From Planctomycetota bacterium (lineage in GTDB: Bacteria; Planctomycetota; UBA1135; UBA2386): DNA of 64,000 nucleotides. The notes beneath the pieces were generated by a model that ran no database searches, had not been told where the DNA came from, and worked only from the letters and a program-made list of their open reading frames with translations. The translations under genes and the position numbers were made by a program. Of the stretch, positions 1 to 42,512 are shown piece after piece. Location: the NCBI GenBank assembly GCA_965228735.1, contig OZ245838.1, positions 3,072,001-3,136,000 of the forward strand. Reading direction: 5' to 3'. Every line of letters starts with the position of its first letter. Within the stretch, counting starts at the first letter, position 1.

Positions 1-2030
1 GTCGGCCGCCCGCTCGGCAACAGCACGAGCGAGCCCGCGGCCGGCACGAGACCCGCCGGCGTCGGCGCCGCGGCACCGAGCGACAGCCACGTGCGCAGCG
101 CATCGATCTCGGCGAGATCCGCCGCGCGCTTCAAAGGCCAGAACGACGGCATGCGCGTGCCCGGCCGCAGCGTCGGCGCGTTCAGCAGCCAGTTCCGGAA
201 CCAGGCGGGCCGCACCCGCTCGTGCTGGATCGACAGATCCATGCCCTGCGGCCCGAGCGAGGGCGCGCCGGCGAACGTGTGACACTGCACGCAGTTCTTG
301 CCTTCGAGACCCGCGAGCGCGTGCCCGCGCTCGGCGTTCGCAACGGAGAACGTCGGCTCGTCGTCGACGACGCCCGGCGCATCCACCTCGCCGAACAGCT
401 CCGCGTACCTCCCCGCGCGATCGGCGGCGACCTTCGGCATCCGGATCGACAGATAGGGCCGCACGCGGTGTCCCTCCGTCAACACACGCTCGATCCACTT
501 CGCCCGCAACCGCGCGCCGACCTGGCTCAGATCCGGCGGGATGCGACCCTCTTCGCCGAGGTCCTCGCGCTCTTGCAGATGCTTCGTCACCGCCGGCGCG
601 AGGCCGCCGCGACCGTCGCGCACGTGGCACGACAGGCAGCCGTCCTGCAGCAGCATGAGCTCGAGCTGCGCCTTGCCGTCGAGCGGCTGCGCGAGGCTCA
701 CCGTCGCGGCACCGTGCAGCGCCTTGGCCGCGGGCGTCGTCGGACACGCCCGGCCGAGCCGCAGCTCGTTCCAGGCTGGCGCCGCCTTCGCCGCCGGCAT
801 CGCCGCGAGCTGGTCGTCCGCGATCTCGTGGCACGCCACGCACTGCCTCGCGTGCGCTGCGGCGCGCCCGCGCGCCACCGCGGCGGCCGCCGGAAAAGCC
901 GCGCGCGGCGGCGGCACGAGCGCCATCGCCCGCGCCTCGGCGCGCGCGGCCGGCAGGATCTGCTCCTCGACGCCAGGACCGGACCACCACACGTCGAGCT
1001 GCTTGCCGCCACCGGCCTGCGTGAACACGACCTCGAGATCGTGCGGTCCGGCCGCGAGCTCGACCGAGCCGCTCTGCTTCTCGTAGGGATGGTTACCGCT
1101 GTTGGTCACGACGCGCTTGCCGTCGATCCACAGCCACGAACCGTCATCGCTCCCCGTCGTGAACTTCCACTTGCCCGCCGCCGGGACGTCGAGGCTGGCG
1201 CGGAACCGGAGCGCGAAGTTGTTGCCGCGGGTCGCCGGCTTCACGTCGATCACGTCGACGACGCCGGCCGCCGCGACCTCGACACCCTCGAGATCCGGCA
1301 CCTTGCCGTTGGTCTTCATCTCGAAGCACTCGAAGCCGAACCCCGGCACGTCCGCGCCGTCATCGTTGGCGTCGCGCACCTGCACCTGCAGCATCCAGGC
1401 CGCGAGCGCGCTCGCCTCCTTCTTGCCGAGACCGAAGTCGTGCGGGACACCGGGCCGACGCGCGCCGGGCTCGAGCAGGAACGCCATGACGTGCGCATGG
1501 TCGGTGCGCGTCGCGAGCTTCTTCAGTGCGTCGGGCGCGTGGCATGCGCCGCACGCGCGCTGGTGAAACAGCTCCTCACCGAGCCGGATCGTGCCCTCGC
1601 TCGTCGCCGCCGGCTGCAGCTCGACGTCGCCGCCGAGGTCGAGCAGCCACGCCGCGAGGTCGCCGGCATCGTCACCACCGTGGTGCGAACGCAGGAACGC
1701 GGCAGCACCGTCGCGCACGTGCCACGCGGATGCATCGACGAGCGCCGGACCGGCGAGCGGCGCGGTCCGCGCAGCGAGCGGCTTCGGGACCGCGTGGCAG
1801 CGCACGCAGCCCGCTCGCCGCACCGCCAGCTCACCGCTGAGCGCCTCGCGACCTTGCGGATCCTGCGACTGCCCGAGTGACTCCGGCGGCGAAGCGAGTG
1901 GCGAAGCGACCGGCGTCGCGACCGACCCGACACCGAACCCGGCGTAGGCGACCGACGACGGTTCGCCGTTGGATCCGGTCCCGCATGCAGCGAGAAGCGC
2001 GAGGGTGGCCGAGAGGGGTAGCCGAGGCAT
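1..2030 (-). CDS. Multiheme (at least 5 CxxCH) c-type cytochrome lipoprotein with internal PA14 domain; 3' end lies outside the window (not in ORF track)
   Basis: Manual translation from ATG 2030: MPRLPLSATLALLAAC (lipobox). CVRCH 1794-1808, CGACH 1539-1553, CVACH 828-842, CLSCH 624-638, CVQCH 279-293. PA14-like segment NFALRFRASLDVPAAGKWKFTTGSDDGSWLWIDG...LAAGPHDLEVVF...WSGPG. No stop before position 1. Confidence 0.9.
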   Translation of the reverse strand, partial: MPRLPLSATLALLAACGTGSNGEPSSVAYAGFGVGSVATPVASPLASPPESLGQSQDPQGREALSGELAVRRAGCVRCHAVPKPLAARTAPLAGPALVDASAWHVRDGAAAFLRSHHGGDDAGDLAAWLLDLGGDVELQPAATSEGTIRLGEELFHQRACGACHAPDALKKLATRTDHAHVMAFLLEPGARRPGVPHDFGLGKKEASALAAWMLQVQVRDANDDGADVPGFGFECFEMKTNGKVPDLEGVEVAAAGVVDVIDVKPATRGNNFALRFRASLDVPAAGKWKFTTGSDDGSWLWIDGKRVVTNSGNHPYEKQSGSVELAAGPHDLEVVFTQAGGGKQLDVWWSGPGVEEQILPAARAEARAMALVPPPRAAFPAAAAVARGRAAAHARQCVACHEIADDQLAAMPAAKAAPAWNELRLGRACPTTPAAKALHGAATVSLAQPLDGKAQLELMLLQDGCLSCHVRDGRGGLAPAVTKHLQEREDLGEEGRIPPDLSQVGARLRAKWIERVLTEGHRVRPYLSIRMPKVAADRAGRYAELFGEVDAPGVVDDEPTFSVANAERGHALAGLEGKNCVQCHTFAGAPSLGPQGMDLSIQHERVRPAWFRNWLLNAPTLRPGTRMPSFWPLKRAADLAEIDALRTWLSLGAAAPTPAGLVPAAGSLVLLPSGRP

Positions 2031-27275: not shown

Positions 27276-30200
27276 ATGCGAACGCGTGCAGCCAGCGTCT
27301 TCGTCTGCCTCGCCCTCGCGGCAACCGCCGCCCCACAGGGCGAGCCGCACAACGGTCCGCGCCCCGTCACGCCCGACTGGTATGCGCTCACGGGCGCCAC
27401 CGTCGTCACGGCACCCGGGCAACGCCTCGCCGGCGTCAGCGTCGTGGTGCGCGGCGGCCGCATCGTCGACGTCACGGACGACGTGCCGGCCGGCGCGACA
27501 CGCATCGACTGCTCCGGTACGACCATCTACCCGGGCCTGATCGAACCGTTCCTGCCCGTCGACTCGCCGGCGCGCGAACCGGACCGCAACGACGCGCACT
27601 GGAGCCCGATGATCCAGCCGCAGCGCGGCGCGCTCGACGGCGACGGGCTGACCGAGGACGACCGCGAAGAACTGCGTGCCCTCGGTTTCGCGGCTGCTGG
27701 AGTCAGCCCGATCGGCGGCATCGTCACCGGCTCGCAGAGCGTCGTGTTGCTCGACGAGCCCGGCCCGACGGAGCGCACGCGCGTGATCCGCGAGCACGCT
27801 GGCCTCGTCGTTCGCCTCGCGCGCAACCGCGGCAGCTACCCGAACAGCGAGATGGGCGCCATCGCGATGCTGCGCCAGACGCTGCTCGATGGGCGGTGGT
27901 ACGACCGCGCGATGCGGGCGGTCGAACGCGATCCGCAACTCGCGAGCGACGCGCCGCCGGTGTCGGCCGCGCTCGCCGCGATGGCGCGACACGCGCAGCT
28001 GCCGCTCTGGCTCGATACGAGCAACGAGCTGCAGGCCCTGCGCCTGCTGCGGATCGCGGCCGAGATGAACCGCGACGCGATCCTCGTCGGCAGCGGCATG
28101 GAGTTTCGCCGCCTCGCCGCGATCGCCGGCGCCGAGCGCCCGATCGTCGTCCCGCTCGAGTTCCCCCGCGCGCCCCGCCTCGACTCGGCCGCAGCCGCCG
28201 CTGCGGTCTCGCTGCGCCAGTTGCTCACGTTCGAGCAGGCGCCGACCAACAGCGCCCGACTCCACCGCGCCAGCGCGAAGTTCGCGTGGACGACCGCGCG
28301 CATGAACCGTCGCAGCGACTTCCGCAAGCGCATGCACGAGGCCATGCAGTGCGGGGTCGACGAGGACGCGGCGCTGAAGGCGCTCACGACCGTGCCCGCC
28401 GAGCTGCTCGGCGTGAGCGCGCAGCTCGGCACGATCGCACCCGGCAAGCTCGCCAACCTCGTCGTCGTCGACGGCAACCTGTTCGATCCCGACAGCGCGA
28501 TTCGCGCGGTATGGGTCGCGGGGCGGCAGCACGAGATCGAGCCCCGGAGCGCCGAGGCGCTCGACGGCGACTGGCGCCTCACGAAGTGGCCAGCAGCCGG
28601 CAAGGCGCCGCAGCTGGCGATCGACGGCGACAGTGTCGAACTCACCGCCGGCGAGGATCGGCTGAAGACCGCGGTCGGCACGCGCGACGCGCACGCGATC
28701 GCGTTGCGGGTTCGCGACGCGTTCGGCCAGGGCAGCGGCGTGTGCTGGCTCCGCCTGCAGCGCGCAGGTGAGGGCCTCTCCGGCACGGGCACGCGCCCCG
28801 ATGGCACCACGTTCGTCATCGCCGCGGAACGCTCGGATCCGGCAACCCCGACCGACCCGGAACGGGAGGACCCGTTCGAACCGCCACCGCTGTCACCGCT
28901 GCCGACCCCCCTCGGCGGCTACGGCACGCCGACACAGCCAGCACCGGAATCGTTCGCGATCACCAACGCGACGATCTGGCCGTCGGACGGACGCGGCGTG
29001 ATCGAGAACGGCGCCGTTGTCGTGCGCGATGGCCGCATCGTGTTCGCCGGCGCGGCCGAGGACATGCCGGCGCTGGCAGCCGGAACGCGCCGCATCGACG
29101 GCCGCGGCCGACACGTCACGCCCGGCCTCATCGATTGCCACTCGCACACCGGTATCTCGGGCGGCGTCAACGAAAGCGGCCAGGCGGTGACCGCGGAAGT
29201 GCGCATCCAGGACGTCATCGATCCCGATGACGCCAACTGGTACCGCCAGCTCGCCGGCGGCGTCACGGCCGTCAACCAGCTGCACGGCTCGGCCAACGCG
29301 ATCGGCGGCCAGAGCTCGACCGTCAAGCTGCGCTACGGCTGCGCGCACCCCGACGAGATGCGCATCGACGGCGCTCCGGGCGGCATGAAATGGGCGCTCG
29401 GCGAGAACCCGCGCCGCGCGAACGGCAACCGCGAGCAGACGCGCTACCCGAGCACGCGCATGGGTGTCGAGGCCCTCATTCGCGACCGCCTCGTCGCAGC
29501 GCAGGCCTACCAGCGGGAGCACACGGCCTACTCCGAACTCGGGCCGCAAGAACGCGCACGCGTCGTGCCGCCGCGGCGCGACCTGGAGCTCGAGGCCATC
29601 GCGGAGATCCTCGCCGGCGATCGCTGGATCCACTGTCACAGCTACCGCCAGGACGAGATCTTCATGCTGTGCGGCGTGGCCGAGGAGTTCGGCTTCAAGA
29701 TCGGCACCCTGCAGCACGTTCTCGAGGGCTACAAGGTCGCCGACGCGATCGCGGCGAACGCGCGCGGCGCGTCGTCCTTCAGCGACTGGTGGGCCTACAA
29801 GTTCGAGGTCTTCGACGCGATCCCGCACAACGGCGCGCTCATGCACGAGGCCGGCGTCGTCGTGTCGTTCAACAGCGACAGCAGTGAACACGCGCGCCGG
29901 CTCAACACCGAGGCTGGCAAGGCCGTGAAGTACGGCGGCGTGCCGCCGGCCGAGGCGCTGGGCTTCGTCACCCGGAATCCGGCGATGCAGCTCGGCATCT
30001 TCGATCGCACGGGTTCCCTGACGGCCGGGAAGGACGCGGACGTCGCGCTGTGGTCGGGCAACCCGCTCAGCTACGCCGCGCGCTGCGTGGCGACGTGGGT
30101 CGACGGCCGGCCGTTGTTCTCGCTCAGCCGCGACGCGCGGCTGCGGACCCGGATCACCGAAGAACGCGCGCGGCTGCTGCAGAAGGCCGCGCTCGCCACG

Positions 30201-30329
30201 CGCCGCCAGCGCGGCGGCGGTGCCGACGGTGCGGGCGGCGACCGATTGCGCGACGCCTACTGGCGGGCCGAGTATCTCGAGGACGCGTACTGCTGCCGCA
30301 ACCACACGCTGAACGGAGGCAACCGATGA
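27276..30329 (+). CDS. Secreted two-domain amidohydrolase family protein
   Basis: Signal peptide; first domain PGLIEPF (no His pair), GTIAPGKLANL; second domain PGLIDCHSH, HCHSYRQDE, QHVLEGYK, NSD, GSLTAGKDAD. Confidence 0.9.
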   Translation: MRTRAASVFVCLALAATAAPQGEPHNGPRPVTPDWYALTGATVVTAPGQRLAGVSVVVRGGRIVDVTDDVPAGATRIDCSGTTIYPGLIEPFLPVDSPAREPDRNDAHWSPMIQPQRGALDGDGLTEDDREELRALGFAAAGVSPIGGIVTGSQSVVLLDEPGPTERTRVIREHAGLVVRLARNRGSYPNSEMGAIAMLRQTLLDGRWYDRAMRAVERDPQLASDAPPVSAALAAMARHAQLPLWLDTSNELQALRLLRIAAEMNRDAILVGSGMEFRRLAAIAGAERPIVVPLEFPRAPRLDSAAAAAAVSLRQLLTFEQAPTNSARLHRASAKFAWTTARMNRRSDFRKRMHEAMQCGVDEDAALKALTTVPAELLGVSAQLGTIAPGKLANLVVVDGNLFDPDSAIRAVWVAGRQHEIEPRSAEALDGDWRLTKWPAAGKAPQLAIDGDSVELTAGEDRLKTAVGTRDAHAIALRVRDAFGQGSGVCWLRLQRAGEGLSGTGTRPDGTTFVIAAERSDPATPTDPEREDPFEPPPLSPLPTPLGGYGTPTQPAPESFAITNATIWPSDGRGVIENGAVVVRDGRIVFAGAAEDMPALAAGTRRIDGRGRHVTPGLIDCHSHTGISGGVNESGQAVTAEVRIQDVIDPDDANWYRQLAGGVTAVNQLHGSANAIGGQSSTVKLRYGCAHPDEMRIDGAPGGMKWALGENPRRANGNREQTRYPSTRMGVEALIRDRLVAAQAYQREHTAYSELGPQERARVVPPRRDLELEAIAEILAGDRWIHCHSYRQDEIFMLCGVAEEFGFKIGTLQHVLEGYKVADAIAANARGASSFSDWWAYKFEVFDAIPHNGALMHEAGVVVSFNSDSSEHARRLNTEAGKAVKYGGVPPAEALGFVTRNPAMQLGIFDRTGSLTAGKDADVALWSGNPLSYAARCVATWVDGRPLFSLSRDARLRTRITEERARLLQKAALATRRQRGGGADGAGGDRLRDAYWRAEYLEDAYCCRNHTLNGGNR

Positions 30330-31687
30330 CCGCTTCTCGCACCGGCTTCTTCGCGCCAGGGGCGCTCACGGCGCTCGTCGTGGCAACGGTCACGAGCGCG
30401 ACTTCGGCGCAGGATCTGCTGCCGAAGGGCGCGCCCGAGCTGCGGCCCGTCCTGCTGCAGAACGGCACGATCCACACGATCAGCGCCGGCACCGTGCTCG
30501 GCGGCACGGTGTGGTTCCACGAGGGCAAGATCCGCGGCGTGACGACGCGCGGCGTGATGCCGGCGATCCCGCCCGGCACCGAACCGCGCAAGATCGACCT
30601 GCAGGGTCGCGACGTGTACCCCGGCATGATCGCGGCGGCGACGACGCTCGGTCTGCAGGAGATCGGCCAGGTGCGCCAGTCGGTCGACGTCAACGAGATC
30701 GGCGACATGACGCCCGAGGTGCTGGCCGCGGTCGCGCTCAATCCGGACTCGACGGCGATTCCCGTCGCCCGTTCCAACGGCGTGCTCGCCGCCGCGGTGT
30801 TTCCGGGGGGCGGCCTGATCGCAGGCCGCGCGTCGATCATCCAACTCGACGGCTGGACCAACGCCGACATGACCGTGATCCGCGACGCCGGGCCCGTGGT
30901 CTCCTGGCCGGCGATGGCGTTCGGTCAGCGCCCGCGCCGGCGCAGTCCGGTGGCGCGCGAGACGAGCGACCCGAACGAGCGCGCGCGCCAGCGCCGGGCG
31001 GCGATCGACCGCGCGTTCCGTGACGCCCGCGCGTGGTCTCGCGCGCACCGCGCCGATCCGAACTTCCCGATCGACGTGCGACACCAGGCACTCACCGCGG
31101 CCGCGCGCGGTGAGAAGCCCGTGTTCCTCTTGGCCGACGAGGTCGAAGCGATCGAGTCGGCCGTGCACTGGGCCACGGATCTCGGCCTGCGTCCCGTGAT
31201 CGTCGGTGGCCGCGATGCGCACGAATGCGCGCGGCTGCTCGTCGAGCGCGAGGTGCCCGTCATCCTGCAGGGCGTGCACAACATGCCGCGGCGCAGCGAC
31301 AGCGCCTTCGACGAACCGTTCACGTTGCCGGCGCGCCTGCACCGGGCGGGGGTGAAGTTCTGCATCGCCTCGGGCGACGGCTACAGCAACGAACGGAACC
31401 TGCCCTACCACGCGGCCACGGCCGCCGCGTTCGGCCTCGACCGGCGCGAGGCGCTCGCGGCCGTGACGCTGCGCGTCGCGGAGATCCTCGGCTGCAGCGA
31501 CCGGCTCGGCGCGCTGAAGGCCGGCTGCGACGCGACGTTGTTCGTGTGCGATGGCAACCCACTCGAGCTCACGACGTCCATCGAGCTCGCGTTCATCCGC
31601 GGCCGCCAGGTCGACCTGCGCAACAAGCAGACGGAGCTCGCGAAGAAGTATCGCGAGCGCTACCGCCAGCTGCGTGAGTCGAAGTAG
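30326..31687 (+). CDS. Secreted amidohydrolase-like protein, probably a non-catalytic partner
   Basis: Start ATG 30326 after GGAGG; PGMIAAATTLG lacks HxH; RNLPYHAA, GALKAGCDATLF. Confidence 0.88.
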   Translation: MTASRTGFFAPGALTALVVATVTSATSAQDLLPKGAPELRPVLLQNGTIHTISAGTVLGGTVWFHEGKIRGVTTRGVMPAIPPGTEPRKIDLQGRDVYPGMIAAATTLGLQEIGQVRQSVDVNEIGDMTPEVLAAVALNPDSTAIPVARSNGVLAAAVFPGGGLIAGRASIIQLDGWTNADMTVIRDAGPVVSWPAMAFGQRPRRRSPVARETSDPNERARQRRAAIDRAFRDARAWSRAHRADPNFPIDVRHQALTAAARGEKPVFLLADEVEAIESAVHWATDLGLRPVIVGGRDAHECARLLVEREVPVILQGVHNMPRRSDSAFDEPFTLPARLHRAGVKFCIASGDGYSNERNLPYHAATAAAFGLDRREALAAVTLRVAEILGCSDRLGALKAGCDATLFVCDGNPLELTTSIELAFIRGRQVDLRNKQTELAKKYRERYRQLRESK

Positions 31688-31708: not shown

Positions 31709-32209
31709 TCACCGCTGCAGCAGCGCGCCTGCGAGCGTCGCGACATCCGCAACGAACGCGGTTGCGCCGGCTGATTCGAGGCGGGCGCGGTGGGACTCGG
31801 CACCGATGCCGTGCGGTTCGATCGCAAGCGCGATGCAGCCCGCGCCGCGGGCGGCCTCGACGTCGCTGGGATTGTCGCCGAGCATCCAGGCCCGCTCGAC
31901 GGCGAGCGCCCGGCCCGCGCTCGCGAGGCGTTCGACCGCGAGCCGGACCGGCGCGGGATCGGGCTTGGTCGGGCCGTCGTCCGTCGTGACCAGGGCACCG
32001 ACGAACTCGCGCAGCCCGTGGCGTGACAGCACCGACTCGGCGAGCTGCCGCGGACACGTCGTCACGACTCCGATCGGCCAGCGCTCGGCGAGCGCGGCGA
32101 GCACCTCCGGCACGACGAGCGCGGTCCGGGCGTAGATGTCCGCGAGCACGCCGTCGAGGTCGAAGATCAACGCCTCGGGCGCGGGCAGCGCGGACAGCGG
32201 CGAGGTCAC
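31709..32209 (-). CDS. HAD-superfamily hydrolase (short)
   Basis: FDLDGVL motif I, KPDP, GDNPSD motif IV; GTGA overlap with the cytochrome gene. Confidence 0.88.
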   Translation of the reverse strand: MTSPLSALPAPEALIFDLDGVLADIYARTALVVPEVLAALAERWPIGVVTTCPRQLAESVLSRHGLREFVGALVTTDDGPTKPDPAPVRLAVERLASAGRALAVERAWMLGDNPSDVEAARGAGCIALAIEPHGIGAESHRARLESAGATAFVADVATLAGALLQR

Positions 32210-34320
32210 CGCTGTGACCCCAGGAACTGCCAGATCGCTTCGAACTGCTTCTGCGCGTCGCCGCCGAGAATCTCGGTGAACGCCGTCTTGCCGTTCTGAT
32301 TGGCGTACTTCGGCATCCGCGCGTCAGGATCGATGCGCGGCGGATCCAACAGCCAGCGCGAGTAATACTCGTGGCGCAACCGCTTCCGCGCGAGATACAG
32401 CTCGATGCCCTCGCGCTCGAAGACCTGCTCGGCCTTCTTGTCGCCGAGCGCGTGGCACTGCACGCAGCCGAAACCCGTACCCTGCATGAGCAACGCGCGG
32501 CCGTGGATCGCCATCTGCGCATTCGGCGCGACCTGCGGTTCGTCACCCGCGCCGTAGCCGTGCTCGCGCACGAGCCCCGCGGTGATCGGCGCGCCGCGCA
32601 ATTCGAACGCCGGCATGCGAGCGTGCAGCCATGGGCGCGGCGAGGGCAGCTTGCCCGTGACGAACTGCTCGATCCAGCTCGGCTGCAGCTTGCTGCCGAC
32701 CCACGTCAGCGCGGGCACGCCCTGGGCGGCGGGATCCTGCTCGGGCGGCAACGGCTCGTCGAGTGCGAGCTCGTTGGCGACCTGGGCCCACGTCGACGGC
32801 TGGTCGTCCAGCGCATGACACGCCGTGCAGCGCTGGACGGCGAGGTGCCGCTGGGCATAGTCGATCGGCGAGAGCCGGAACGGCGCGGTCTCCGCGTGCG
32901 GCAGGAACGCGCGCAACGCCGCGATCTCGACCTTACCGAGCCGATGGTTCGGGGCATCGCCGCGCGCGGCCGGGGTGTCCGCGAGACAACCGCGCTTCAC
33001 CTTGAGGTTCTGCAGGTCGGGCGCGATCTCGTCGTCGATCGGAACGTCGAGTTCGTGGCACGCCGCGCACTGCTTGCGTTGCGCGATGCGCCGCCCCTTC
33101 GCCGCGTCGCCATCGACGACGGGCAATGCGACGGACTGCCCCTTCGGAGTCGCGATGAGCAGGTAGGCCGTCAGCTCGATCGCCTCGTCGCGCGACAGCT
33201 TCATGTCCGGCATCCGAACGTGCGGATAGAACTGCTGCGGATCCTGCAGGTAGGCCACGAGCGCCGCGGCGTGCCACTTCTGCCGCACGTGGTGCAGCGG
33301 CAACCGGTCGCCGAGATTGCTCTCGTCGGGCGCGCGATCCGGCGGCACATGACACGCGATGCAGCCGAGCTGCAGGAAGCGGTCCTTGCCCGCGCCGGCC
33401 TTGCCCGCCGGCGGGTCGAACGCGAGCGGCGCGCCAAGGCTCGCGAGCCAAGTCGCGACGTCGGCCGCATCCTCCGTCGTGAGGGCGAATCCCGGCATGC
33501 GCGCGTCGTGCCGGAACGCGGTCGGATCCAAGAGCCACGCCGCCATCCAGTCGCGCCGAAGGCGCGAACCGACGGTGCGCAGGTCGGGCCCGCCCGCGCT
33601 CAGCTCGCCGTAGGCCGACTCACCGTAGCCGCGCTGATCGAACTGATGGCAGCGCGCGCAGCGCCGCTCGCCGAACAGCTGCTGCCCGAGACGACGTTCC
33701 TCGCCCTTCGCGATATCGGCGTCGTCGGCCGGCCACGACAGCAGCTGCGGCTGGATCGGCTCGAACCCGCAGTCGGGCGGCGCCCAGAACAGGCGCAGCT
33801 CGCCGTCGCCGAACGCCGAGCTCTCGAACGTCAACCGCAGGTCGTTCTCGCCCTTGCCGAGCCGGACGGACTTCTCGGTCTCGAGCGGCTGACCGGCGCG
33901 CAGTCCGCCCTCGAGCACGACCTTGTCCTTGATCTCGAGCTTGACCTTGCCGCGCCCGACGATGCGGAAGCGGTAACGGTCGCGCGACGGCACCGTGACC
34001 TTCGCCTCGAACGTCGCGCGGAAGTAGCCGGGTTCGAGGAACGGCGACGGCACCTCGCCGCGCTCGACCGCGAGCGACAGCAGCCGCGCGCGCTGACTCT
34101 GCACCTGGGGCTCACGCCCCCGTGGCAGCACCCGCTCGAACGTCACCTTCGCGCCGCGCACGTTGCCGCCCTGCGGCGCCCGCCCGACGCCCGGCTCGAC
34201 GTGCCGCTCGACGTGCCGCTCGGCGTGCCGATCGGCGACGGCCGCGCCGCCGCCGATCGCAGTGCAGACGACCGTCGCGGCCGCCCACGCGAGAACGATC
34301 CAACCGATCCGCGCCTGCAT
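32206..34320 (-). CDS. Secreted pentaheme c-type cytochrome with N-terminal PA14-like domain
   Basis: CARCH 33646-33660, CIACH 33349-33363, CAACH 33055-33069, CTACH 32815-32829, CVQCH 32452-32466; four RMP Met-ligand motifs; PA14-like FRATFEAKVTVP...VRLGKGENDLRL...LRLFW. Confidence 0.9.
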   Translation of the reverse strand: MQARIGWIVLAWAAATVVCTAIGGGAAVADRHAERHVERHVEPGVGRAPQGGNVRGAKVTFERVLPRGREPQVQSQRARLLSLAVERGEVPSPFLEPGYFRATFEAKVTVPSRDRYRFRIVGRGKVKLEIKDKVVLEGGLRAGQPLETEKSVRLGKGENDLRLTFESSAFGDGELRLFWAPPDCGFEPIQPQLLSWPADDADIAKGEERRLGQQLFGERRCARCHQFDQRGYGESAYGELSAGGPDLRTVGSRLRRDWMAAWLLDPTAFRHDARMPGFALTTEDAADVATWLASLGAPLAFDPPAGKAGAGKDRFLQLGCIACHVPPDRAPDESNLGDRLPLHHVRQKWHAAALVAYLQDPQQFYPHVRMPDMKLSRDEAIELTAYLLIATPKGQSVALPVVDGDAAKGRRIAQRKQCAACHELDVPIDDEIAPDLQNLKVKRGCLADTPAARGDAPNHRLGKVEIAALRAFLPHAETAPFRLSPIDYAQRHLAVQRCTACHALDDQPSTWAQVANELALDEPLPPEQDPAAQGVPALTWVGSKLQPSWIEQFVTGKLPSPRPWLHARMPAFELRGAPITAGLVREHGYGAGDEPQVAPNAQMAIHGRALLMQGTGFGCVQCHALGDKKAEQVFEREGIELYLARKRLRHEYYSRWLLDPPRIDPDARMPKYANQNGKTAFTEILGGDAQKQFEAIWQFLGSQR

Positions 34321-37274
34321 CAGAAGCCCGGGTTCTTGCGCAGTTCGTGGATGGTGTTGTGCAGCTCGCCCTTGAGCTGCTCACCCGCGGCCGTGTCGAC
34401 GTTCCAGTTGATGCGCATCTGGTGCACGGGCTTCATGCCCTCGATCGCGAGGAAGACCGTCTTCTGGTCCGGCCCGACCTTCGCGCTCGTGATCTTCAGC
34501 GGGTCACGGTTCTTCTTGCCGCGTTCGACCTCGCGCCCGGGTTCGAGCACCGACAGCTCGGGCGAGCCGTAGGCCTGCGAGTAACGGTAGTTCCAGACCT
34601 CGACGCCGTAGCTCTCCGGGTCCTCCGCATACTCGAGATCGAGCGCCTGTGGGAACGTCACGTAAACGCCCTCGTCGCACGTCACGAGCTTCGTCGGGAT
34701 GTCGAGCGGCGCGTCCACACGGCGCACGCGATGGAACCCACCCTCGCGCGCGGCGCTCGTCTGCCAGCCCTTGAGTCCGATGACGTAGAGCTGACCGTCG
34801 TGCGGCGAGAAGCGCGGCCGCATGCAACTCGACGAGAAGTCGACGGGCAGCCGCACGACGCCGCCCTGCACCGGCCCTTCATGGTTGCGCGGCCACTCGG
34901 GCATCACGAGGTAGACGGAGCACGTGCCGTAGGAACAGTGCAGGACCGACCCCTGCAGATCGCCCCACTCTTCCGACGTGACGAGCACCTGGCCGCCGCT
35001 GCTGTTGTCGACCTCCATCGGCATCCAGCACAAGGGCAGGTCCGGGCGATCGGGCACCGGCGTGCGATGCGCGCAGTCCTTGACGCCGGCGTAGAAGCCC
35101 GGCTCGTAGAACCAGTTGAGCCGGCACCGCGGCATGTAGGTGCCCTCGTTGTCGCCCGAGGTGAACACCGTGCCGTGCGCACCCTCGTGGACACCGATGC
35201 CGTTGGGCGCGCGCATGCCCGTCGCGATCGGTTCGATCGTCGCGCCGTCCTTGCTGACCTTGAGGATCGTGCCGTGGTGCGGCGCGATGCGCTGGAAGCC
35301 GCGGCCGCCCGGGTTCACCGGCGCCCCCTTGCTGAGATAGAAGTTGCCGGCCTTGTCGGTCTGCAGGTCGAACGCGAACTCGTGGAACGCGTGCGTCACG
35401 TAGACCTGATTGTTGAAGCACTCGTACCAGTCGGCCTCGCCGTTCTTGTCCGTATCGTGCAGTCGCGTGATGCCGTCGCGCCCGTGCACGTGGATCACGC
35501 CGCCGACGACCTTGAGACCGAGCGGGTCATAGAGCCCGGTCGCGAACCGCGTCCAGCGCAGCTCGTCGAGGTCCTCGTCGATGCCTTCGACGATCCAGAC
35601 GTCGCCGTTCCAGGTCGAGACCGCCGCACTCGTCTCGCCGACGAAGTCGAACGCCCCGGTCCGCATGCGCGAGCCGAACCGGTTCTCGAACGGAATCGTG
35701 ATCGTGTCGACCGCGAAGCCGCCCTCCGCGTCGCCACGCGTGCCCTTGGTCGTGATCGCATCGCCCCACTGGCGCGGCGCCGGCCGCCGCGGCAGCGGCG
35801 CGACGGCATCGTCCTCGAACACCTTGCCGAGCGCCTCGATGGCCTTGTCGTCGCCGGCCGCCATCCGCAGCTGCAGCCGCATCGGCTCGGCATGCGCCGG
35901 CACCTTGACGAGGATGCGGTTGGTCTCGACGACGAACTCCGCCGGATCGCCGTGCATCGTCGCCATCAGGTTCTGCCGGCTGCGCCCAACCGCGTCGACC
36001 GCGGCGCGGAACGAGTCGGCGAAGACATCGATCTCCGAGAAGAACGTGCCGCCGTTCTCCACGTGCAGCAGCAGGTGACGGAACGTGCCGAGGCCGTCCT
36101 TCTGGCTCGAGCTCGCTGCGTGCTTGTCACCGGGCCCGAGCTCCGAACTGTCGACCTTGGCGATGCGGGTCCAGCCGGCCTTCTCGGGGTCCTTGGCCTC
36201 GACGTCGGGCGCGGTCGCGGCGGCGCTGCCGTAGATCGTGTAGCGCTGGGTCGCGCGATTGCCCTTGTGCCACGAGTAGGTGCTGATGCGTGACACGGGC
36301 ACCGACTTCTGCAGATCGATGTGCAGGCGACCGCGATCGGAGCGACGCTTGCCGACCTGGTGCTTGTCGAACCAGCAGCTGCCGGCCCAGTCGTCGTCGT
36401 TCTTGCTCGCAACACCGTCCATCAGCGCAGCGACGCCGCCGCCCTTGCCGTTGACCGGCGCGAACTCGCCGCCGACCCGCGTGATCACGGCGCCCGTGCC
36501 GCTGCTGCTGTCGAGGTAGTCGCCAGCGCTCGGGCCTCCCATCGAAAGATCGGACCAATCGACGGTCGTGCCGTCGAGCTCGACGAGGCCATCGACCTCG
36601 GGCACCCATTGCAGCATCGCGACACGCTGCGGCGCGTTCATCTCCATCCGGCCGGCGAGCGCCCCGGCGGGCCCGTCGGCGACGACGAGGATCTGCTCCG
36701 ACTTCGACGGTCCGAGCTCGAGCGTGCGCGTCACGACCCCACCGGGCAGGTAGCCGTAGCCCTCGCGAACCTGCATGTCGTCGACGCGGTAGCCGACGAC
36801 GACCTGACCCTCCTTGAGCCACAGGCCTTCGTACTGCCCCCAGTCGCGCGGCAGCGGCCCGTCTTCGATCGAGCGCGGATCGTCGAGGTCGCCGCGGTGA
36901 GCCCAACCGGGACCGAGCGCCGTCTCCGTGACCTTGCGGCCGCGCAACGCGCACATCGGACCGTGCGCCCCGTCGTAGGCCGTGCCGCGCAGTCGCAGCC
37001 AGCCGTCCGTCCACGCCGCCGAGAGTCGCAGCAGCTCGGTGTCGAACGCGACCGCCCCGACCGGCTTGCCATCGTCCCCCGGCAACTTGACCACGACGCC
37101 CTTGATCGTGTTCCCGCTGCGACCGCCGCCTTCGAACGTGGTCATCAGGTACGGGCCATGATCCATCGAGTACGGCCAGTCCTTCTTCGGGGTGGCCGGG
37201 GCCTGGGCCACCAGGGAGGAGAAGCCGATCTCGACGGCAGCGAACAGAACGAGTGGGGTCGCGAGTCTGCGCAT
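34320..37274 (-). CDS. Secreted DUF6797-like protein with inserted discoidin/galactose-binding-like domain and C-terminal sorbosone-dehydrogenase-like beta-propeller
   Basis: Signal peptide; MDHGP...FDTELLRLSAAW N-domain; propeller motifs RFATGLYDPLGL, DTDKNGEADWYE, IATGMRAPNG, DNEG; stop overlaps the cytochrome start. Confidence 0.75.
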   Translation of the reverse strand: MRRLATPLVLFAAVEIGFSSLVAQAPATPKKDWPYSMDHGPYLMTTFEGGGRSGNTIKGVVVKLPGDDGKPVGAVAFDTELLRLSAAWTDGWLRLRGTAYDGAHGPMCALRGRKVTETALGPGWAHRGDLDDPRSIEDGPLPRDWGQYEGLWLKEGQVVVGYRVDDMQVREGYGYLPGGVVTRTLELGPSKSEQILVVADGPAGALAGRMEMNAPQRVAMLQWVPEVDGLVELDGTTVDWSDLSMGGPSAGDYLDSSSGTGAVITRVGGEFAPVNGKGGGVAALMDGVASKNDDDWAGSCWFDKHQVGKRRSDRGRLHIDLQKSVPVSRISTYSWHKGNRATQRYTIYGSAAATAPDVEAKDPEKAGWTRIAKVDSSELGPGDKHAASSSQKDGLGTFRHLLLHVENGGTFFSEIDVFADSFRAAVDAVGRSRQNLMATMHGDPAEFVVETNRILVKVPAHAEPMRLQLRMAAGDDKAIEALGKVFEDDAVAPLPRRPAPRQWGDAITTKGTRGDAEGGFAVDTITIPFENRFGSRMRTGAFDFVGETSAAVSTWNGDVWIVEGIDEDLDELRWTRFATGLYDPLGLKVVGGVIHVHGRDGITRLHDTDKNGEADWYECFNNQVYVTHAFHEFAFDLQTDKAGNFYLSKGAPVNPGGRGFQRIAPHHGTILKVSKDGATIEPIATGMRAPNGIGVHEGAHGTVFTSGDNEGTYMPRCRLNWFYEPGFYAGVKDCAHRTPVPDRPDLPLCWMPMEVDNSSGGQVLVTSEEWGDLQGSVLHCSYGTCSVYLVMPEWPRNHEGPVQGGVVRLPVDFSSSCMRPRFSPHDGQLYVIGLKGWQTSAAREGGFHRVRRVDAPLDIPTKLVTCDEGVYVTFPQALDLEYAEDPESYGVEVWNYRYSQAYGSPELSVLEPGREVERGKKNRDPLKITSAKVGPDQKTVFLAIEGMKPVHQMRINWNVDTAAGEQLKGELHNTIHELRKNPGF

Positions 37275-37458
37275 GATGAGCGGGCGGATCTTACGGGTCG
37301 CGGGCGAGGAGACGAGTCACGTTCCCGAGCGCACGGTGGCACCGCGCGTTCCGCGCCGGCCCGCCGAAATGGCAAGGGCTCGCGGACCCTGTGCCGATAG
37401 GCCCGAACGGAGAGGGCGGACAGCCGCCAGATCTCGTTCTGCCTGCACGCCGCCCGCG

Positions 37459-39549
37459 ATGACCGCCGCCCGACCGCCAATTGACGAAGCCGCCCGGCTC
37501 GCCACCTTGCATCGGTACGGCGTCCTCGACACCCCGGCCGAGCAGGAATACGACGACATCGCGCAGCTCGCGGCACAGATCTGTGACACCGCGATCGGTC
37601 TCGTCAGCCTGACGGACATCGACCGGCAGTGGATGAAGGCGACGTTCGGGTTCGAGTTGCCCGAGATCCCGCGCGATGGGTCGTTCTGCGATCACGCGAT
37701 CCGACAGCGGGAGCCGGATGTGCTCGTCGTCGAGGACGCGGCGAACGATCCGCGTTTCGCCGCTTCGGCTGCCGTCACCGAGATCGGCCTGCGATTCTAC
37801 GTCGGCGCCCCGATCGTCGCGCCGAACGGCCACGTGCTCGGCACGGTCTGCGTCCTCGATCGGCAGCCGCGGACGGCCACGAGCGCGCAGGTCGCCGGGC
37901 TCACGGCGCTCAGCCGCCAGGTCGTCGCGCTGCTCGAACTGCGCCAGCAGCTGCGCACGCGCGACCAGCTCAACGCCTCGCTGCACGAGACTTCGGAGCT
38001 GCTGCTCGAATCCCAGAGCCTCGCGCGCGTCGGTGGTTGGAGCCTCGACATCGCGACGCACGAGCTCGAGTGGACCGACGAGACGTATCGCATCCACGAC
38101 GCGACTCCCCGCTCGTTCGTGCCGACGGTCGAACAGGCGATCGGCTTCTACGTCCCGTCCTACGTCCCGGTGATCGAGGCCGCGGTGAAGAACGCGATCG
38201 CGTCGGCGCAACCGTTCGATCACGAACTCGAACTCATCACGACGATAGGACGTCGAATCTGGGTCCGCGCGACGGGGCGCCCGCTCGTCGAGAACGGCCA
38301 GGTCACGCGCGTGGTCGGCGCGTTCCAGGACATCACGGCCGTCCGCACGGCGGCCGCCGAGCTGCTCGAGGCGAAGGAAGCAGCGGAGGCAGCCAACGAG
38401 GCCAAGGGCCGCTTCCTCGCGACGATGAGCCACGAGATCCGCACGCCGATGAACGCGGTGATCGGCTACACCAACCTGCTCGAGTCGACCCCGCTGGACG
38501 AGACGCAGCGCGAGTATCTGCGCATCATCGAACGGTCCGGCCAGGCGCTCATGGCGCTGATCAACGACGTGCTCGACTACGCGCAGATCGAAGCCGATCG
38601 CGTGGAGATCGAGGCCATCGACTTCGACCTGCACGAGTCCGTCAACGACATCGCGCGCATGCTGGCGCCGACGGCGATCGAGAAGCGCATCGAACTGCGC
38701 GCCGTCGTGAGCAACGGCCTGCCACGGTTCGTCAATGGCGACATCACGCGCCTCGGCCAGGTTCTGCTCAACCTCATCAACAACGCCGTCAAGTTCACCG
38801 AACGTGGCAGCGTGACGCTGGCCGCCCAGCCGGTCGCCGACGCCGACGACCGGATTCGCTTCGAGGTCCGCGACACGGGCATCGGGATCGCGCAGGATCG
38901 GATCGGCCAGCTGTTCGAGGAGTTCACCCAGGCCGACGCCTCGACCCGGCGGCGATTCGGCGGCACCGGGCTCGGGCTCGCGATCTCGCGCCGCATCGTC
39001 GAGCTCATGGGCGGCGAGATCGGCGCATCGAGCACGGTCGGCCGGGGATCGACGTTCTGGTTCACGGTGCCGCTCCCGGCCAGCAAGTCGGCGGCGACCG
39101 CAGAGGACCCGCAAGGCGCCTCGAACGAGACCGACCCCGCGGTCGAGTCCACCGCTGGCCGCCGCCACGTGCTGCTCGCCGAGGACAACCCGATCAATCA
39201 GCGGCTCGCGCGCGAGTTCCTCACCGCGATGGGATGCGACGTCACGGTCGTCGACGACGGCGCGCAGGCCGTCGAGGCGGTGTCGCAGACCGACTACTCG
39301 CTCGTGCTCATGGACTGCCTGATGCCGGAGATGGACGGCTTCGAGGCGACGCGCTTGATCCGCGAGCTCGAGCGGAAAGGTGCGCGCCCAGCGACGCCGA
39401 TCGTCGCGCTGACGGCCAACGCGCAGCCCGGTGACCGCGAACGCTGCCGCGAGGCCGGCATGGACGACCACCTCGGCAAGCCGTTCCGGCGCTCGGATCT
39501 GGAGCACGTCATCGCGACGTGGAGCCGCGTCGTCGCGGCGGTCGACTGA
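37459..39549 (+). CDS. Cytoplasmic hybrid sensor histidine kinase GAF-PAS-HisKA-HATPase-REC
   Basis: Start ATG 37459; [16 protein letters not shown] (GAF), [15 protein letters not shown] (PAS), [38 protein letters not shown]. Confidence 0.95.
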
Positions 39550-39561
39550 CCGATCTCCGCG

Positions 39562-40203
39562 TTACTTCGCCGCGGACTCGTCGACCTTCTTCACGCCGGC
39601 GGTCACACAGAACCGCAGCGCGTCCTCGACCGTCATGTCGATCCCGCGCACGCGGTCCTCGTCGACGATGACCGTGAAACCGCCGAGCTGGTAACTCATC
39701 GGCAGGTAGACCGCGACCTTGCCATCGCCGATCCCCGCCATGTCGGAGAAGTCGTCGCGCGTGACGAACCCGATCTGTTCGAAGCTGTCCTCGATCTGCA
39801 CGAGCACCACGTGGCGGAACGGCCGCTCGTCCTCGCCGCTGCCGAAGATCCGCACGATGTCGACGATCATCCCGTAGACCGACTTCACGACCGGGATGCG
39901 CTCGAGCATGTGGGTCAGCTGGCGATACAGCGTCCGCGCCACGAACGAGTACATCAGCAGGCCGATCGCGAGGATCAGCAGGATCGACAGACCGAACCCC
40001 ATGCCAGGGCGATACCACCCCCGGGTCACCGTGCCGTCCTCGGCGACCGCACCGTCGACCCAGGCATCGTCGAACAGCAGCAGGAGCAGCTCGTGCAGCA
40101 TGGTCTCGCCGGCGGTCACGGCCCACCAGACGGCCGCGACCGTGAGCGCGACGGGCAGCACCGCCGCGAGCCCGCGGAAGAACAGCTTGGCCAGGAACTT
40201 CAT
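39562..40203 (-). CDS. DUF502 family membrane protein
   Basis: Start ATG 40203; [51 protein letters not shown]. Confidence 0.88.
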
Positions 40204-40499
40204 CGCAGCATCGTGCCCCACGGCAGACCGAAATGCGCTCCCCACCTGGTGTTCTGTCGACCCCACCGCGCCGTCGCGGGGTGTTCCGACCGCGAAACAG
40301 GCTCGGCCGGACCGGTGTCCCGGCCGCGGGACAGGTCATTTCGCTGACTGTCGGGCGGACTTCCCCGAACCGCCGGAGAACGCCATAAACCCCTGTAAAA
40401 CCGCCACTCCACGCCCCATTCCGACACGGTATCCTTGTTGCTGATGGTACGGCTCGACGCGTCCGCTCCCGGACCCGTCCTCCACGACCAACGACGCCT

Positions 40500-42512
40500 A
40501 TGAACCTCTGCCGCATCGTCCTGGCCCTCCTGCCCGCGCTGTTCCTGCTCGCGGAGCCGATCGAAGCCCAGCGCGGCCGCTCGTCGTCGCCGCGGGCCTC
40601 GAGCCCGCGTTCGAGTCCGCGAGTCAGCTCGCCGCGAGTCAGCTCGCCGCGCGTGAGCACGCCGCGCAGCGCCCCGCGGGCCAGTTCCCCGCGCAGCATC
40701 CGCTCGACGCCGCGCACCAGTTCGCCGCGGTCGACGCCGCGCGCGAGCACCCGCCAGGCGACGCCGCGGACGTATACGCCGCGCGCTACCCGCAACTCGT
40801 CGCCGCGGTCCTACACCCCGCCGACCCGAACCAACTCGAACCCGCGGTCGGTCTCACCGCGGTCGAGCGTCCGCTCGACGCCGCGCAGTTATCCGGGGCG
40901 CTCGACAACGCGCAATTCGAACCCGCGCAGTTCGTCGTCGACGACGACTCGTACTCCGACGTACCCGCGCGGTCGCAGTTCGGCGCGCACGTCGGACGGC
41001 AACACGAGCCGGAACGTGACGCCACGTTCGACGGCCCGCCCGATCGGCGGCTCGGTGCGCAGCATCGGCGGCTCGTCGACGCGCAAGTACGAGGTCCGCT
41101 CCAACCCGCGTTCGACCGCGCGCCCCGCGCCGTCGACCACGCGAACGCGCGGCTCGACCCGTTCGACGGCCCGGCCGACGACGCGTGAGCTGTACGACCG
41201 CGCCGGCCGGCGCGCGGCGCCGACCCGCAGCACGACCCGCTACCGCCCGGGCGACGTCACGCCGCGCAGCACGAACACGCGGGGCTCCCGCGGCACCGTC
41301 TCCTCGCGACCGATCAGCACGCCGCGTGGCCGCGGGTCGACGACGCCGTCGCGCACGACGCGCTACAACCCGGCGCGCTCGGCCCCGCGCGGCAACACTC
41401 GCGTGCGGACGACCTCGCCGGGCACCGTCTCGCCGATCCGCTCTCGGGGCGGCAGCGCGGCGGTGCGCGCCAACCCGCGCCCCAATGTAGCCAGCAACTC
41501 GCTCGTGCGCAGCAGCGGCCGCATCAGCGCCTCGCCGCGCCTCAACCCACGGGTCGCGAACGGCCGCACGCGCATCGGCACCCGCGTCACCTCGCGACTC
41601 TACGGCAACGGCCGCTTCGGCTTCGGAGCGCCGGGTTTCGGCGGTCGCGGTTTCGGTGCCGTCGCGAGTTCGTGGTGGGATCCGTGCTTCACCTCGTACT
41701 GGCCGTCGAACTGCTGGAATTGGGGCTTCGGCCGCGGCTGCTACGGCTTCGGCGGCTCGCTGTGGTACCCGTTCTACTGGGGCACGTCGTGGCGCTGGAA
41801 CGGCTTCTACGACAACTGCTGGTGGAACAGCTGGAGTCAGCCCGCGTGGGGCGGCTACTGGTGGTACCCGCAGTCGACCTACTGCCCGACCTACCTCTAC
41901 GTGCCGAGCACGTCGGCCATCTACATCGAGGACGGCTACGAGGGCATCCCGGCGGACCCCGCCGCGGAGGACCTGCCGCCGGTCGCCGCGGACCCGGCGC
42001 CGGCAGCGGCCGACGAGACGCCGGACCTCGCCGCGAAGTACGTCGAGCTCGGTGACTTCTACTTCCGCGCCGGCCGCTTCACCGAAGCGGCGGACGCCTA
42101 CGCCCGGGCCCGCTCCTACGCGCCCGACGACGCGCCGCTGCACTTCGTGCTGGCGGACGCGGCGTTCGCGACCGGCGACTATCACTTCGCGGCGTTCCTG
42201 ATCGCCGAGGGCCTGCGCCTCGACCCGGCGCTCGCCGACGTGAAAGTCGACAAGCGTGAGTTCTACGGCGTCCCGAAGCTGTTCGACGAGCACATGGCCG
42301 CGCTGGACAAGTACCTCGCGGACAAGAAATACGACGCGTCGGCGCACCTCGTGCGCGGCTACAACCTCGCGTTCTCCGGCCGCCCGATGGCCGCGATCGC
42401 GGCGTTCGAGCGCGTGCTCGAGATCGCGCCGGACCACCGCGCCGCGCGCCGCTTCCTCGAGGCCCTCGCGCCGAAGAAAGGCGCGGACGAGGCCAAGCCC
42501 AGCGAGCGCTGA
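40500..42512 (+). CDS. Secreted protein: Arg/Ser/Thr/Pro-rich low-complexity region, Trp/Tyr/Gly/Cys-rich region, C-terminal TPR domain
   Basis: Signal peptide ending IEA-Q; SPR/TPR tripeptide repeats; YVELGDFYFRAGRFTEAADAYARA and AIAAFERVLEIAPDH TPR motifs. Confidence 0.85.
   Translation: MNLCRIVLALLPALFLLAEPIEAQRGRSSSPRASSPRSSPRVSSPRVSSPRVSTPRSAPRASSPRSIRSTPRTSSPRSTPRASTRQATPRTYTPRATRNSSPRSYTPPTRTNSNPRSVSPRSSVRSTPRSYPGRSTTRNSNPRSSSSTTTRTPTYPRGRSSARTSDGNTSRNVTPRSTARPIGGSVRSIGGSSTRKYEVRSNPRSTARPAPSTTRTRGSTRSTARPTTRELYDRAGRRAAPTRSTTRYRPGDVTPRSTNTRGSRGTVSSRPISTPRGRGSTTPSRTTRYNPARSAPRGNTRVRTTSPGTVSPIRSRGGSAAVRANPRPNVASNSLVRSSGRISASPRLNPRVANGRTRIGTRVTSRLYGNGRFGFGAPGFGGRGFGAVASSWWDPCFTSYWPSNCWNWGFGRGCYGFGGSLWYPFYWGTSWRWNGFYDNCWWNSWSQPAWGGYWWYPQSTYCPTYLYVPSTSAIYIEDGYEGIPADPAAEDLPPVAADPAPAAADETPDLAAKYVELGDFYFRAGRFTEAADAYARARSYAPDDAPLHFVLADAAFATGDYHFAAFLIAEGLRLDPALADVKVDKREFYGVPKLFDEHMAALDKYLADKKYDASAHLVRGYNLAFSGRPMAAIAAFERVLEIAPDHRAARRFLEALAPKKGADEAKPSER

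Follow-up and report, generated by a model that had tools for sequence, protein, structure and literature searches.

What could a secreted beta-propeller protein and a five-haem cytochrome do together when their genes overlap on a planctomycete chromosome? The question is raised by three genes in a 64,000-nucleotide stretch of DNA from a Planctomycetota bacterium (assembly GCA_965228735.1, contig OZ245838.1, positions 3,072,001 to 3,136,000), the whole of which was analysed and is called the window here. All three are real open reading frames (ORFs) of the minus strand: (i) gene A (34320..37274; 984 residues), with a signal-like N-terminus, a DUF6797 domain, an optional beta-sandwich insert, a six-bladed propeller, a C-terminal beta-sandwich, and no haem motif; (ii) gene B (32206..34320; 704 residues), with a PA14-fold domain and five class-I-like c-type haem domains; and (iii) a gene for a HAD-fold phosphatase (31709..32209; 166 residues), with an intact DxD motif and without a signal-like N-terminus. 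They follow one another in that order, and at both the A/B and the B/HAD joint the stop codon overlaps the next start codon, in agreement with the translational coupling noted in a preliminary description of the locus, made from the sequence alone. The signal peptides of A and B were recognized by eye from their hydrophobic N-termini. The closest named homologues are mostly labelled Planctomycetota.

Our tentative answer, which we consider plausible though just short of probable, is that A and B form a periplasmic carbohydrate oxidoreductase with a remodelled active site that probably does not use pyrroloquinoline quinone (PQQ), and that the HAD protein stands outside it. A and B would likely assemble into one periplasmic enzyme, a sugar or glycoside would likely be oxidised at the remodelled, probably PQQ-free propeller site, and the electrons would go through the haems to the respiratory chain.

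Genes A and B as one unit

Of 474 A-type stretches found in GTDB, the best 80 served as the A-type loci, and a B-type gene lies directly downstream of A in 67 of these; among the loci with at least 2.5 kb of downstream sequence, B directly follows A in 53 of 61. From the other side, 52 stretches around B-family matches were fetched from a search of 61 genomes of the class, 12 of them chosen with both sets of search coordinates at hand and 40 mainly down the score list; some dozen other places, together with every weak single-haem match, lay outside this sample. At 48 of these 52 pentahaem loci a propeller lies next to the cytochrome or is fused to it, the others being two that end at a contig edge and two with other architectures. 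In three loci both partners form a single frame in the order PA14-five haems-DUF6797-propeller (L004, 1404 residues; L005, 1469 residues; L006, cut by the contig end). The synteny and fetched-locus counts are descriptive, since kin are not independent. A frameshift artefact between A and B was considered and rejected, because the A-B order is the reverse of that in the fusions and recurs in 67 loci. On this genomic evidence A and B are likely one unit, as had been proposed, and we infer from it that the two proteins bind each other.

The genome holds further versions of the pair. The 5' part of a paralogous cytochrome gene, B2, lies at 1..2030 (minus strand) of the window; the second, domain-shuffled pentahaem/PA14 gene of the preliminary description is real, but it had been described incompletely, as it runs off the window, encodes 844 residues in all (two haems, PA14, three haems, and a DUF6797-like end), and is followed, with overlap, by a 500-residue propeller gene of its own beyond the window. 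A third pair consists of an 809-residue pentahaem protein with a C-terminal DUF6797 and a 496-residue propeller protein. The fourth paralogue (L003, genome positions 3245855-3250330) is a single chain of 1491 residues (ThuA-DUF1080-LamG-one haem-DUF6797-propeller), whose propeller is the closest paralogue of that of A (37% identity). The two further pairs are split at a different point than A and B: in 43 pentahaem proteins, the domain that follows haem 5 can be aligned to the DUF6797 of A (hhalign, 98.1%), so DUF6797 sits on the propeller protein here and on the cytochrome in the other pairs.

Some loci depart from these layouts. A B-family gene is split over two frames at L047:4827-7587, variants with three or eight CxxCH motifs and no propeller within the fetched stretch occur at L046:4554-7067 and L051:2832-6464, and in two Verrucomicrobiota loci (L121:9136-10146 and L128:3158-4045) A is followed by a ThuA-like protein, recognized by eye, and not by B.

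The third gene does encode a HAD hydrolase, with matches to PF13419 (57.1 bits) and TIGR01549 (30.5 bits against a cut-off of 23.3); against the named equivalog models all scores fell below cut-off. The preliminary description had made it a member of the system. It follows B in only 25 of 51 assessable loci, mainly those of the closest relatives, and is likely a co-transcribed bystander outside the enzyme. The HAD protein of relatives has a longer N-terminus (L008:10310-10957, 215 residues, 59% identity over 150 residues). Elsewhere in the same genome, a HAD domain with 45% identity to it forms the end of an ORF at genome positions 1994159-1996291, the front of which we take to be a histidinol-phosphate aminotransferase.

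Fold of the propeller protein

The predicted structure of A (pLDDT, the predicted score in the local distance difference test, 90.4; predicted template modelling score, pTM, 0.90) is almost all beta and comprises an N-terminal beta domain, an inserted beta-sandwich, the propeller, and a C-terminal sandwich; all coordinates given below for parts of A and B are on the minus strand. The DUF6797-like N-terminal domain that had been recognized at the outset is supported by Pfam (36660..37178, residues about 33-205; Pfam core 75-171, E 9.9e-23). The inserted beta-sandwich was likewise rightly seen: it is an all-beta insert in the model (36000..36602, residues about 225-425), is weakly F5/8 type C-like (E 0.023, below cut-off), and is unmatched in 24 of the 80 A-type loci. 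The C-terminal sandwich (34350..34709, residues 856-975) carries an invariant Tyr902-Gly903. A motif search of the protein found no CxxCH.

The six-bladed propeller (34710..35729, residues 516-855) has its closest folds among the PQQ-dependent aldose and glucose dehydrogenases and the AA12 enzymes: 3a9g (Z 27.7, root-mean-square deviation (rmsd) 3.3, 299 residues aligned), 2ism (Z 27.4), 6i1t (Z 26.3), 6jt5 (Z 25.2), and 1c9u (Z 25.2). Lactonases and NHL propellers rank lower (Z 21-23). The structural kinship to soluble glucose dehydrogenase (sGDH)/Asd and AA12 that had been suggested is thus borne out at Z 25-28. The glucose/sorbosone-dehydrogenase-like motifs reported with it are partly there, but A has no match to Pfam GSDH (PF07995) at E 0.01, nor do its residues 491-984 at E 1; some relatives match GSDH weakly, below cut-off, and Pfam TrAA12 (PF22807) is not among the Pfam matches of A. 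Against TIGR02604, A scores 16.7 bits (cut-off 122.2), and the A family aligns to the TIGR02604 protein of this genome (hhalign, 98.5%, E 1.6e-15). The two other propeller partners of this genome pass the DUF7133 cut-off. PDB sequence searches with A, its profile, or its propeller half returned nothing meaningful. Three candidates were set aside: S100 proteins, whose matches in that search reflect only a DxDxDG loop; galactose oxidase, whose Foldseek matches (template modelling score 0.15-0.19, rmsd >22) reflect domain order only; and hydrazine synthase (six-blade propeller plus haems; PMC12758564), to which no fold or sequence match pointed.

A pocket apparently stripped of PQQ anchors

The preliminary description implied PQQ chemistry. 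The pocket was compared with known PQQ enzymes by aligning 54 propellers of the family, which were compared with E. coli YliI alone, and by aligning 22 of these 54 to a six-sequence YliI profile (98.4%, E 9.6e-15), residues being mapped from profile alignments at 13-17% identity, by sequence register. Residue numbers of sGDH are those that we take to carry over to the YliI motifs. The roles of the PQQ-binding residues in sGDH and AA12 are taken from the literature (PMC6881789).

His631-Glu632 (35379..35384) is invariant in all 54 propellers and lies in the loop of the catalytic His of sGDH, with a register of plus or minus one: the position of His144 is held by His631 or Glu632, both alignments being gapped at that point. 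At the quinone-binding Arg, Arg688 (Arg688-Ala689, 35208..35213) is kept in 54/54, and the residue after it is Ala in A, where PQQ enzymes have Asn; Asn occurs there in none of the 54, and Ser, Ala, or Thr in every one. Gln/Glu710-Gly711 is kept at the position of the calcium loop in the family alignment. The Arg406/Arg621 position is Ser816 in A and Arg in 0/54, and in two alignments the Arg408 position is Met818 and the Lys377 position Gly783. The signature of nine PQQ-binding residues of CcPDH is not matched, the positions of Asn431 and Arg621 being lost; those of His539, His560, and Arg273 correspond to Asp756, Tyr782/Gly783, and Gly540, the latter less surely, by a two-step mapping through YliI and an AA12-like Comamonas protein. 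The family has invariants of its own (His631-Glu632, Gln803-Gly804, Gly836-Trp837, and Tyr902-Gly903). By these alignments, the propeller appears to have lost most of the usual PQQ anchors, keeping among them only the Arg at the quinone end.

Nor does the supply of PQQ fit well. In this genome pqqC was unmatched and neither pqqE nor a PQQ alcohol dehydrogenase scored over cut-off. In none of the 61 genomes of the class was pqqC found, in searches of the genome itself and of the class whose controls gave no signal; the search of the phylum had its positive in one genome (G153), the only one over cut-off among 151, most of which are incomplete assemblies. B-family matches close to full length (at least 150 bits) occur in 39 of these 151 genomes, and one of the 39 is the genome with pqqC. 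A PqqD-domain match (genome positions 4648344-4652863) was rejected as a pqq gene, as it sits in a cluster read as lasso-peptide genes, its neighbours being asparagine-synthetase-like and transglutaminase-like genes and an ABC transporter. A check for pqq genes and for cytochrome c maturation had been proposed with the preliminary description: the former gave the results just described, and for the latter a gene with the haem c assembly domain is present in the genome.

It is unlikely, on balance, that A is a true PQQ sugar dehydrogenase with shifted binding residues and scavenged PQQ, and B its acceptor, as in a quinohaemoprotein and by analogy with AA12. This explanation draws on the best structural neighbours, all of them PQQ enzymes, on the retention of Arg688 and of the Gln/Glu-Gly calcium loop, and on other Arg residues of the family near the top-face loops (555, 556, 667, 757, 819, and 835). 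Bacteria can import PQQ, and PQQ six-blade proteins beside cytochromes have been described also from genomes without pqq genes (bioRxiv 2026.07.10.737718). However, A itself lacks most of these substitute Arg residues, the Asn after the quinone Arg and the carboxylate anchors (the positions of Lys377, Arg406/Arg621, and Arg408) are lost by alignment, and pqqC is nearly absent from genomes with B. We therefore prefer a remodelled site to the PQQ chemistry first implied.

Carbohydrate genes around relatives

A search with the propeller of a paralogue matched seven plasmid records, of which four were examined. Three Bacteroidota loci have a fused propeller, joined to azurin in two of them and to one haem in the other, and each fusion lies directly behind a gene for a DUF1080-PA14-DUF6797-like protein; a lactonase gene comes directly after the fusion in two of the three, and the third locus lies among glycosidase genes. 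In Catenovulum, a gene for a monohaem-DUF6797-like protein is followed by the propeller gene, near DUF1080, GH16, GH2, and GH43 genes. The four plasmid propellers retain the His-Glu, Arg, and Gln-Gly residues, except that one has Asp for Glu. These four loci point to a core that stays constant (propeller, DUF6797, and in most cases PA14) and to a one-electron carrier that can be exchanged. The DUF1080 protein BT2157 has been reported to hydrolyse 3-keto-trehalose, and cytochrome-linked 3-ketoglycoside dehydrogenases are known (PMC8121099); taken with the BT2157 activity, the DUF1080 genes would point to oxidation of a glycoside at C3, and the lactonase genes to oxidation at C1. The carbohydrate link of the preliminary description is thus seen in the gene neighbourhoods of relatives, with their DUF1080, lactonase, and glycosidase genes. 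The genome of A and B has 14 DUF1080 domains and two TIGR02604 proteins over cut-off.

In our estimate it is decidedly unlikely that the propeller cleaves glycosides without net oxidation, by hydrolysis or by transient oxidation and re-reduction, and that the haems only prime, repair, or regulate its site. Of the distant relatives, a TIGR02604-HEAT-cytochrome protein is the only one that has been assayed, and it was reported to be a lactose hydrolase with a Km of 1.8 mM (bioRxiv 047167), a finding echoed in a list of putative propeller glycosidases that includes TIGR02604 (PMC7397252). The alignment of the A family to a TIGR02604 propeller was noted above, and the invariant Glu632 and the acid at 583 could be catalytic. 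On the other hand, that assay concerns a distant branch, because A scores so far below the TIGR02604 cut-off, and it is hard to see why different phyla should retain five haems, or an azurin, next to the propeller if there were no net flow of electrons.

Very unlikely, too, is a role of the complex as a redox or carbohydrate sensor or as an electron-storage scaffold, with a propeller that binds a ligand like that of the non-catalytic HHIP. HHIP propellers are among the fold neighbours of A (Z 21-24), the cofactor anchors are lost, and there are three or four paralogues per genome. The polar residues of the active-site loops are nonetheless invariant in 54/54, and no signalling gene is conserved beside the pair, the sensor kinase gene next to A (37192-39549) being missing from that place in locus L008.

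The haem chain

The model of B (pLDDT 91.2, pTM 0.89) and its motifs agree with the first account of the protein. CxxCH motifs lie at 221, 320, 418, 498, and 619 and Arg-Met-Pro motifs at 274, 369, 568, and 668, giving haems 1, 2, 4, and 5 a Met-Pro about 50-70 residues downstream. The PA14-fold domain (33730..34170, residues 51-197) scores 20.2 bits in Pfam (cut-off 24), although its fold matches PA14 (Z 13.6, rmsd 2.4, 138 residues aligned). Against TIGR02603, B scores 31.4 bits (cut-off 68.15). The B family is large, with 2448 clusters at 50% identity for its three-haem part (E up to 1e-30). Large multihaem proteins with 23, 7, 11, and 12 CxxCH motifs are encoded elsewhere in the genome (positions 1451892-1459352 and 3840346-3843120).

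Haem 3, whose lack of a Met had escaped the preliminary description, is the odd member of the chain. Its domain is shorter than the other haem domains and has no Met-Pro; Cys445, which is 23 residues after the haem His of the motif at 418-422 (motif plus Cys445, 32986..33069), is free and is its predicted sixth ligand. Of 51 pentahaem proteins, 50 have a free Cys no more than 45 residues after haem 3 and the remaining one has it farther along; it is also present in all 119 close homologues with five motifs found by a single-sequence search. Among 150 distant representatives the count is 149, which is biased upward because the 150 were drawn with a profile that contains the Cys; after haems 4 and 5 such a Cys occurs in 5/150 and 2/150, respectively. 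When the profile is aligned to a class I cytochrome, the position of the usual Met is empty, and the Cys lies about ten residues before it. Ligation of haem by His and Cys is known from TsdA and SoxA, where an invariant Arg stands four residues before the Cys (Arg119/Cys123 in TsdA; PMC4423706). The haem-3 profile matches many class I cytochromes; TsdA and SoxA are not among the best 60 of its 276 matches, and SoxAX entries in the whole-B fold search align across the model at Z about 6, results that neither show nor exclude kinship.

The simplest reading that these alignments suggest is a haem 3 ligated by His and Cys through Cys445, while the Cys may instead form an inter-subunit disulfide or a third thioether. 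That haem 3 and its Cys are the catalytic centre, as in TsdA/SoxA, for sulfur or thiol redox chemistry, with the propeller binding the substrate, is likewise very unlikely: the near-universal Cys and the reactivity of the haem Cys in TsdA (PMC4423706) speak for it, but the invariant Arg of TsdA/SoxA is Val441 in B, haem 3 is missing from the relatives that combine this propeller with azurin or a single haem, and no sulfur-oxidation genes were seen at the loci read.

A proposed mechanism and its weak points

The preferred reading, a periplasmic carbohydrate oxidoreductase made of A and B, can be laid out in six steps of falling strength. First, A and B would be its subunits, with DUF6797 as a joining scaffold, since it occurs on either partner or between them. 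Second, the propeller would be the catalytic part and the cytochrome an exchangeable acceptor, because relatives replace the five haems by one haem or by azurin. Third, the substrate would be a carbohydrate; its oxidation would most likely take place at C3 and yield a 3-keto-glycoside on which a DUF1080 hydrolase could act, or else take place at C1 and yield a lactone. Fourth, His631-Glu632, Arg688, and Glu/Gln710-Gly711 may hold a metal or a cofactor other than canonically bound PQQ. Fifth, haem 5, which adjoins DUF6797 in the fusions, would be the first to take electrons. Sixth, haem 3, if ligated by His and Cys, would be a low-potential step or gate.

Several observations weigh against this reading. 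For the pairing, 8 of the 61 assessable A loci have no adjacent B (in the five of these eight genomes that were searched, a B-family gene lies elsewhere in all five), and the three fusions, all of them from a single family, may go back to one event. For the site, the mapping depends on register at low identity, sGDH and AA12 themselves differ in their PQQ anchors (PMC6881789), and Arg819 (Arg in 40/54), one residue off an anchor, could replace it. For the substrate, there is the lactose hydrolysis already discussed, and no sugar-metabolism genes were seen among the window genes that flank the A-B locus. An Asp-Asp pair in PA14 domains binds calcium and sugar; the domain of B lacks the pair found in paralogue B2 and has Gly-Arg-Gly in its place, and the glycan binding first proposed is not supported for this domain. 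Finally, a haem of low potential in the middle of the chain would be an obstacle to the simple downhill passage of electrons.

Relation to known systems

By their defining tests A is outside sGDH/Asd, AA12, and TIGR02604, though homologous to all three. With sGDH/Asd (1C9U, E. coli Asd/YliI 2G8S, 3A9G, 2ISM; PF07995) it shares six blades, the quinone-loop Arg, the Gln/Glu-Gly calcium loop, and secretion; it differs in the Asn, Lys377, Arg406, and Arg408 positions, in its invariant His-Glu pair, in having DUF6797, the insert, the C-terminal sandwich, and a dedicated five-haem partner, and in having no GSDH match. AA12 (CcPDH 6JT5, TrAA12 6I1T) has the same fold (Z 25-26) and likewise combines a propeller, a haem acceptor, and a carbohydrate-binding-type module, and by analogy the A-B pair most likely works like AA12 or a quinohaemoprotein, that is, with a catalytic propeller, a haem acceptor, and carbohydrate-type modules. 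Unlike AA12 and the bacterial PQQ six-blade proteins, A-B is without the nine-residue signature and has five c-type haems, as against one b-type haem or one or two c-type haems. PQQ propeller genes next to mono- or dihaem cytochromes (c4/c551) have been modelled (bioRxiv 2026.07.10.737718); the main text of that preprint contains no 'multiheme', 'PA14', or 'azurin', and its supplementary tables (21,992 proteins) could include relatives.

The haem-binding CxxCH proteins typical of Planctomycetes, Verrucomicrobia, and their allies (PVC-type; TIGR02604 propeller, HEAT, TIGR02603 haem; DUF7133) have a homologous propeller, a PVC distribution, and a ThuA/DUF1080/LamG fusion in common with the A-B family, and one of their members was assayed as a beta-galactosidase (bioRxiv 047167). 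A, however, is far below the TIGR02604 cut-off and without HEAT repeats, and the family has a DUF6797 scaffold and five haems on a separate or fused chain. TsdA and SoxA resemble haem 3 in having a class-I-like domain without Met and a single conserved free Cys that precedes the last helix by about 20 residues; in B the Cys comes only 23 residues after the haem His, there is no Arg at minus four, the haem is one of five, and its ligation is predicted. The 3-ketoglycoside pathway (LacABC, ThuAB, BT2157) also involves periplasmic, cytochrome-linked oxidation of glycosides, and DUF1080 or ThuA are fused to or beside members of the A-B family, but the oxidising subunit would be a propeller here, and no DUF1080 gene belongs to the A-B locus itself.

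Planctomycete-type cytochromes with carbohydrate-binding modules have been noted as being of unknown function (PMC5615132). In the openly accessible literature no paper was found on DUF6797 or on the five-haem/propeller pair. As far as sequence comparison goes, this is likely a widespread and undescribed family with two oddities, a stripped PQQ pocket with an invariant His-Glu and a haem that is likely Cys-ligated.

Neighbouring genes

Divergent from gene A, the plus strand of the window encodes a hybrid sensor kinase (37192-39549; GAF, PAS, HisKA, HATPase, and receiver domains). In L008, a gene resembling the DUF502 gene of the window (39562-40266) lies directly before A with no kinase between, so that the kinase looks like a later insertion. 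Two overlapping amidohydrolase-family genes (27276-31687, plus strand) converge on the HAD end of the cluster, and genes similar to this pair are on the same side in L008 and L009. Farther out, a 670-residue protein (40500-42512, plus strand) combines a long N-terminal half rich in Arg, Ser, Thr, and Pro with C-terminal TPR repeats.

Meaning for planctomycete biology

Planctomycetes and Verrucomicrobia have many propeller-cytochrome proteins of unknown function and few pqq genes. The A-B family offers a clean test case among them, coming as two genes or as a single chain, and with specific residues singled out for substitution; it is present in a cultured strain, Tundrisphaera lichenicola P12 (L138), and L003 is the best single-chain target for the idea of 3-keto-glycosides. 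Outside sulfur metabolism, His/Cys ligation of one haem in a chain of five would in itself be unusual. A sugar dehydrogenase that carries its own haem wire is also the type of enzyme that serves in electrodes for direct electron transfer. Sugar oxidation by the propeller without PQQ, if it takes place, would mean a new cofactor solution for a familiar fold and would couple glycan breakdown to respiration by a new route. In its boldest form, which we regard as somewhat unlikely, the proposal is that a large unnamed family uses an sGDH-type propeller to oxidise glycosides without PQQ, through a new His-Glu metal or cofactor site and a five-haem wire with a Cys-ligated haem; in planctomycetes the family would then supply the periplasmic entry step that is missing from 3-keto-glycoside breakdown, and it would do so in Bacteroidota too, where azurin would be the acceptor.

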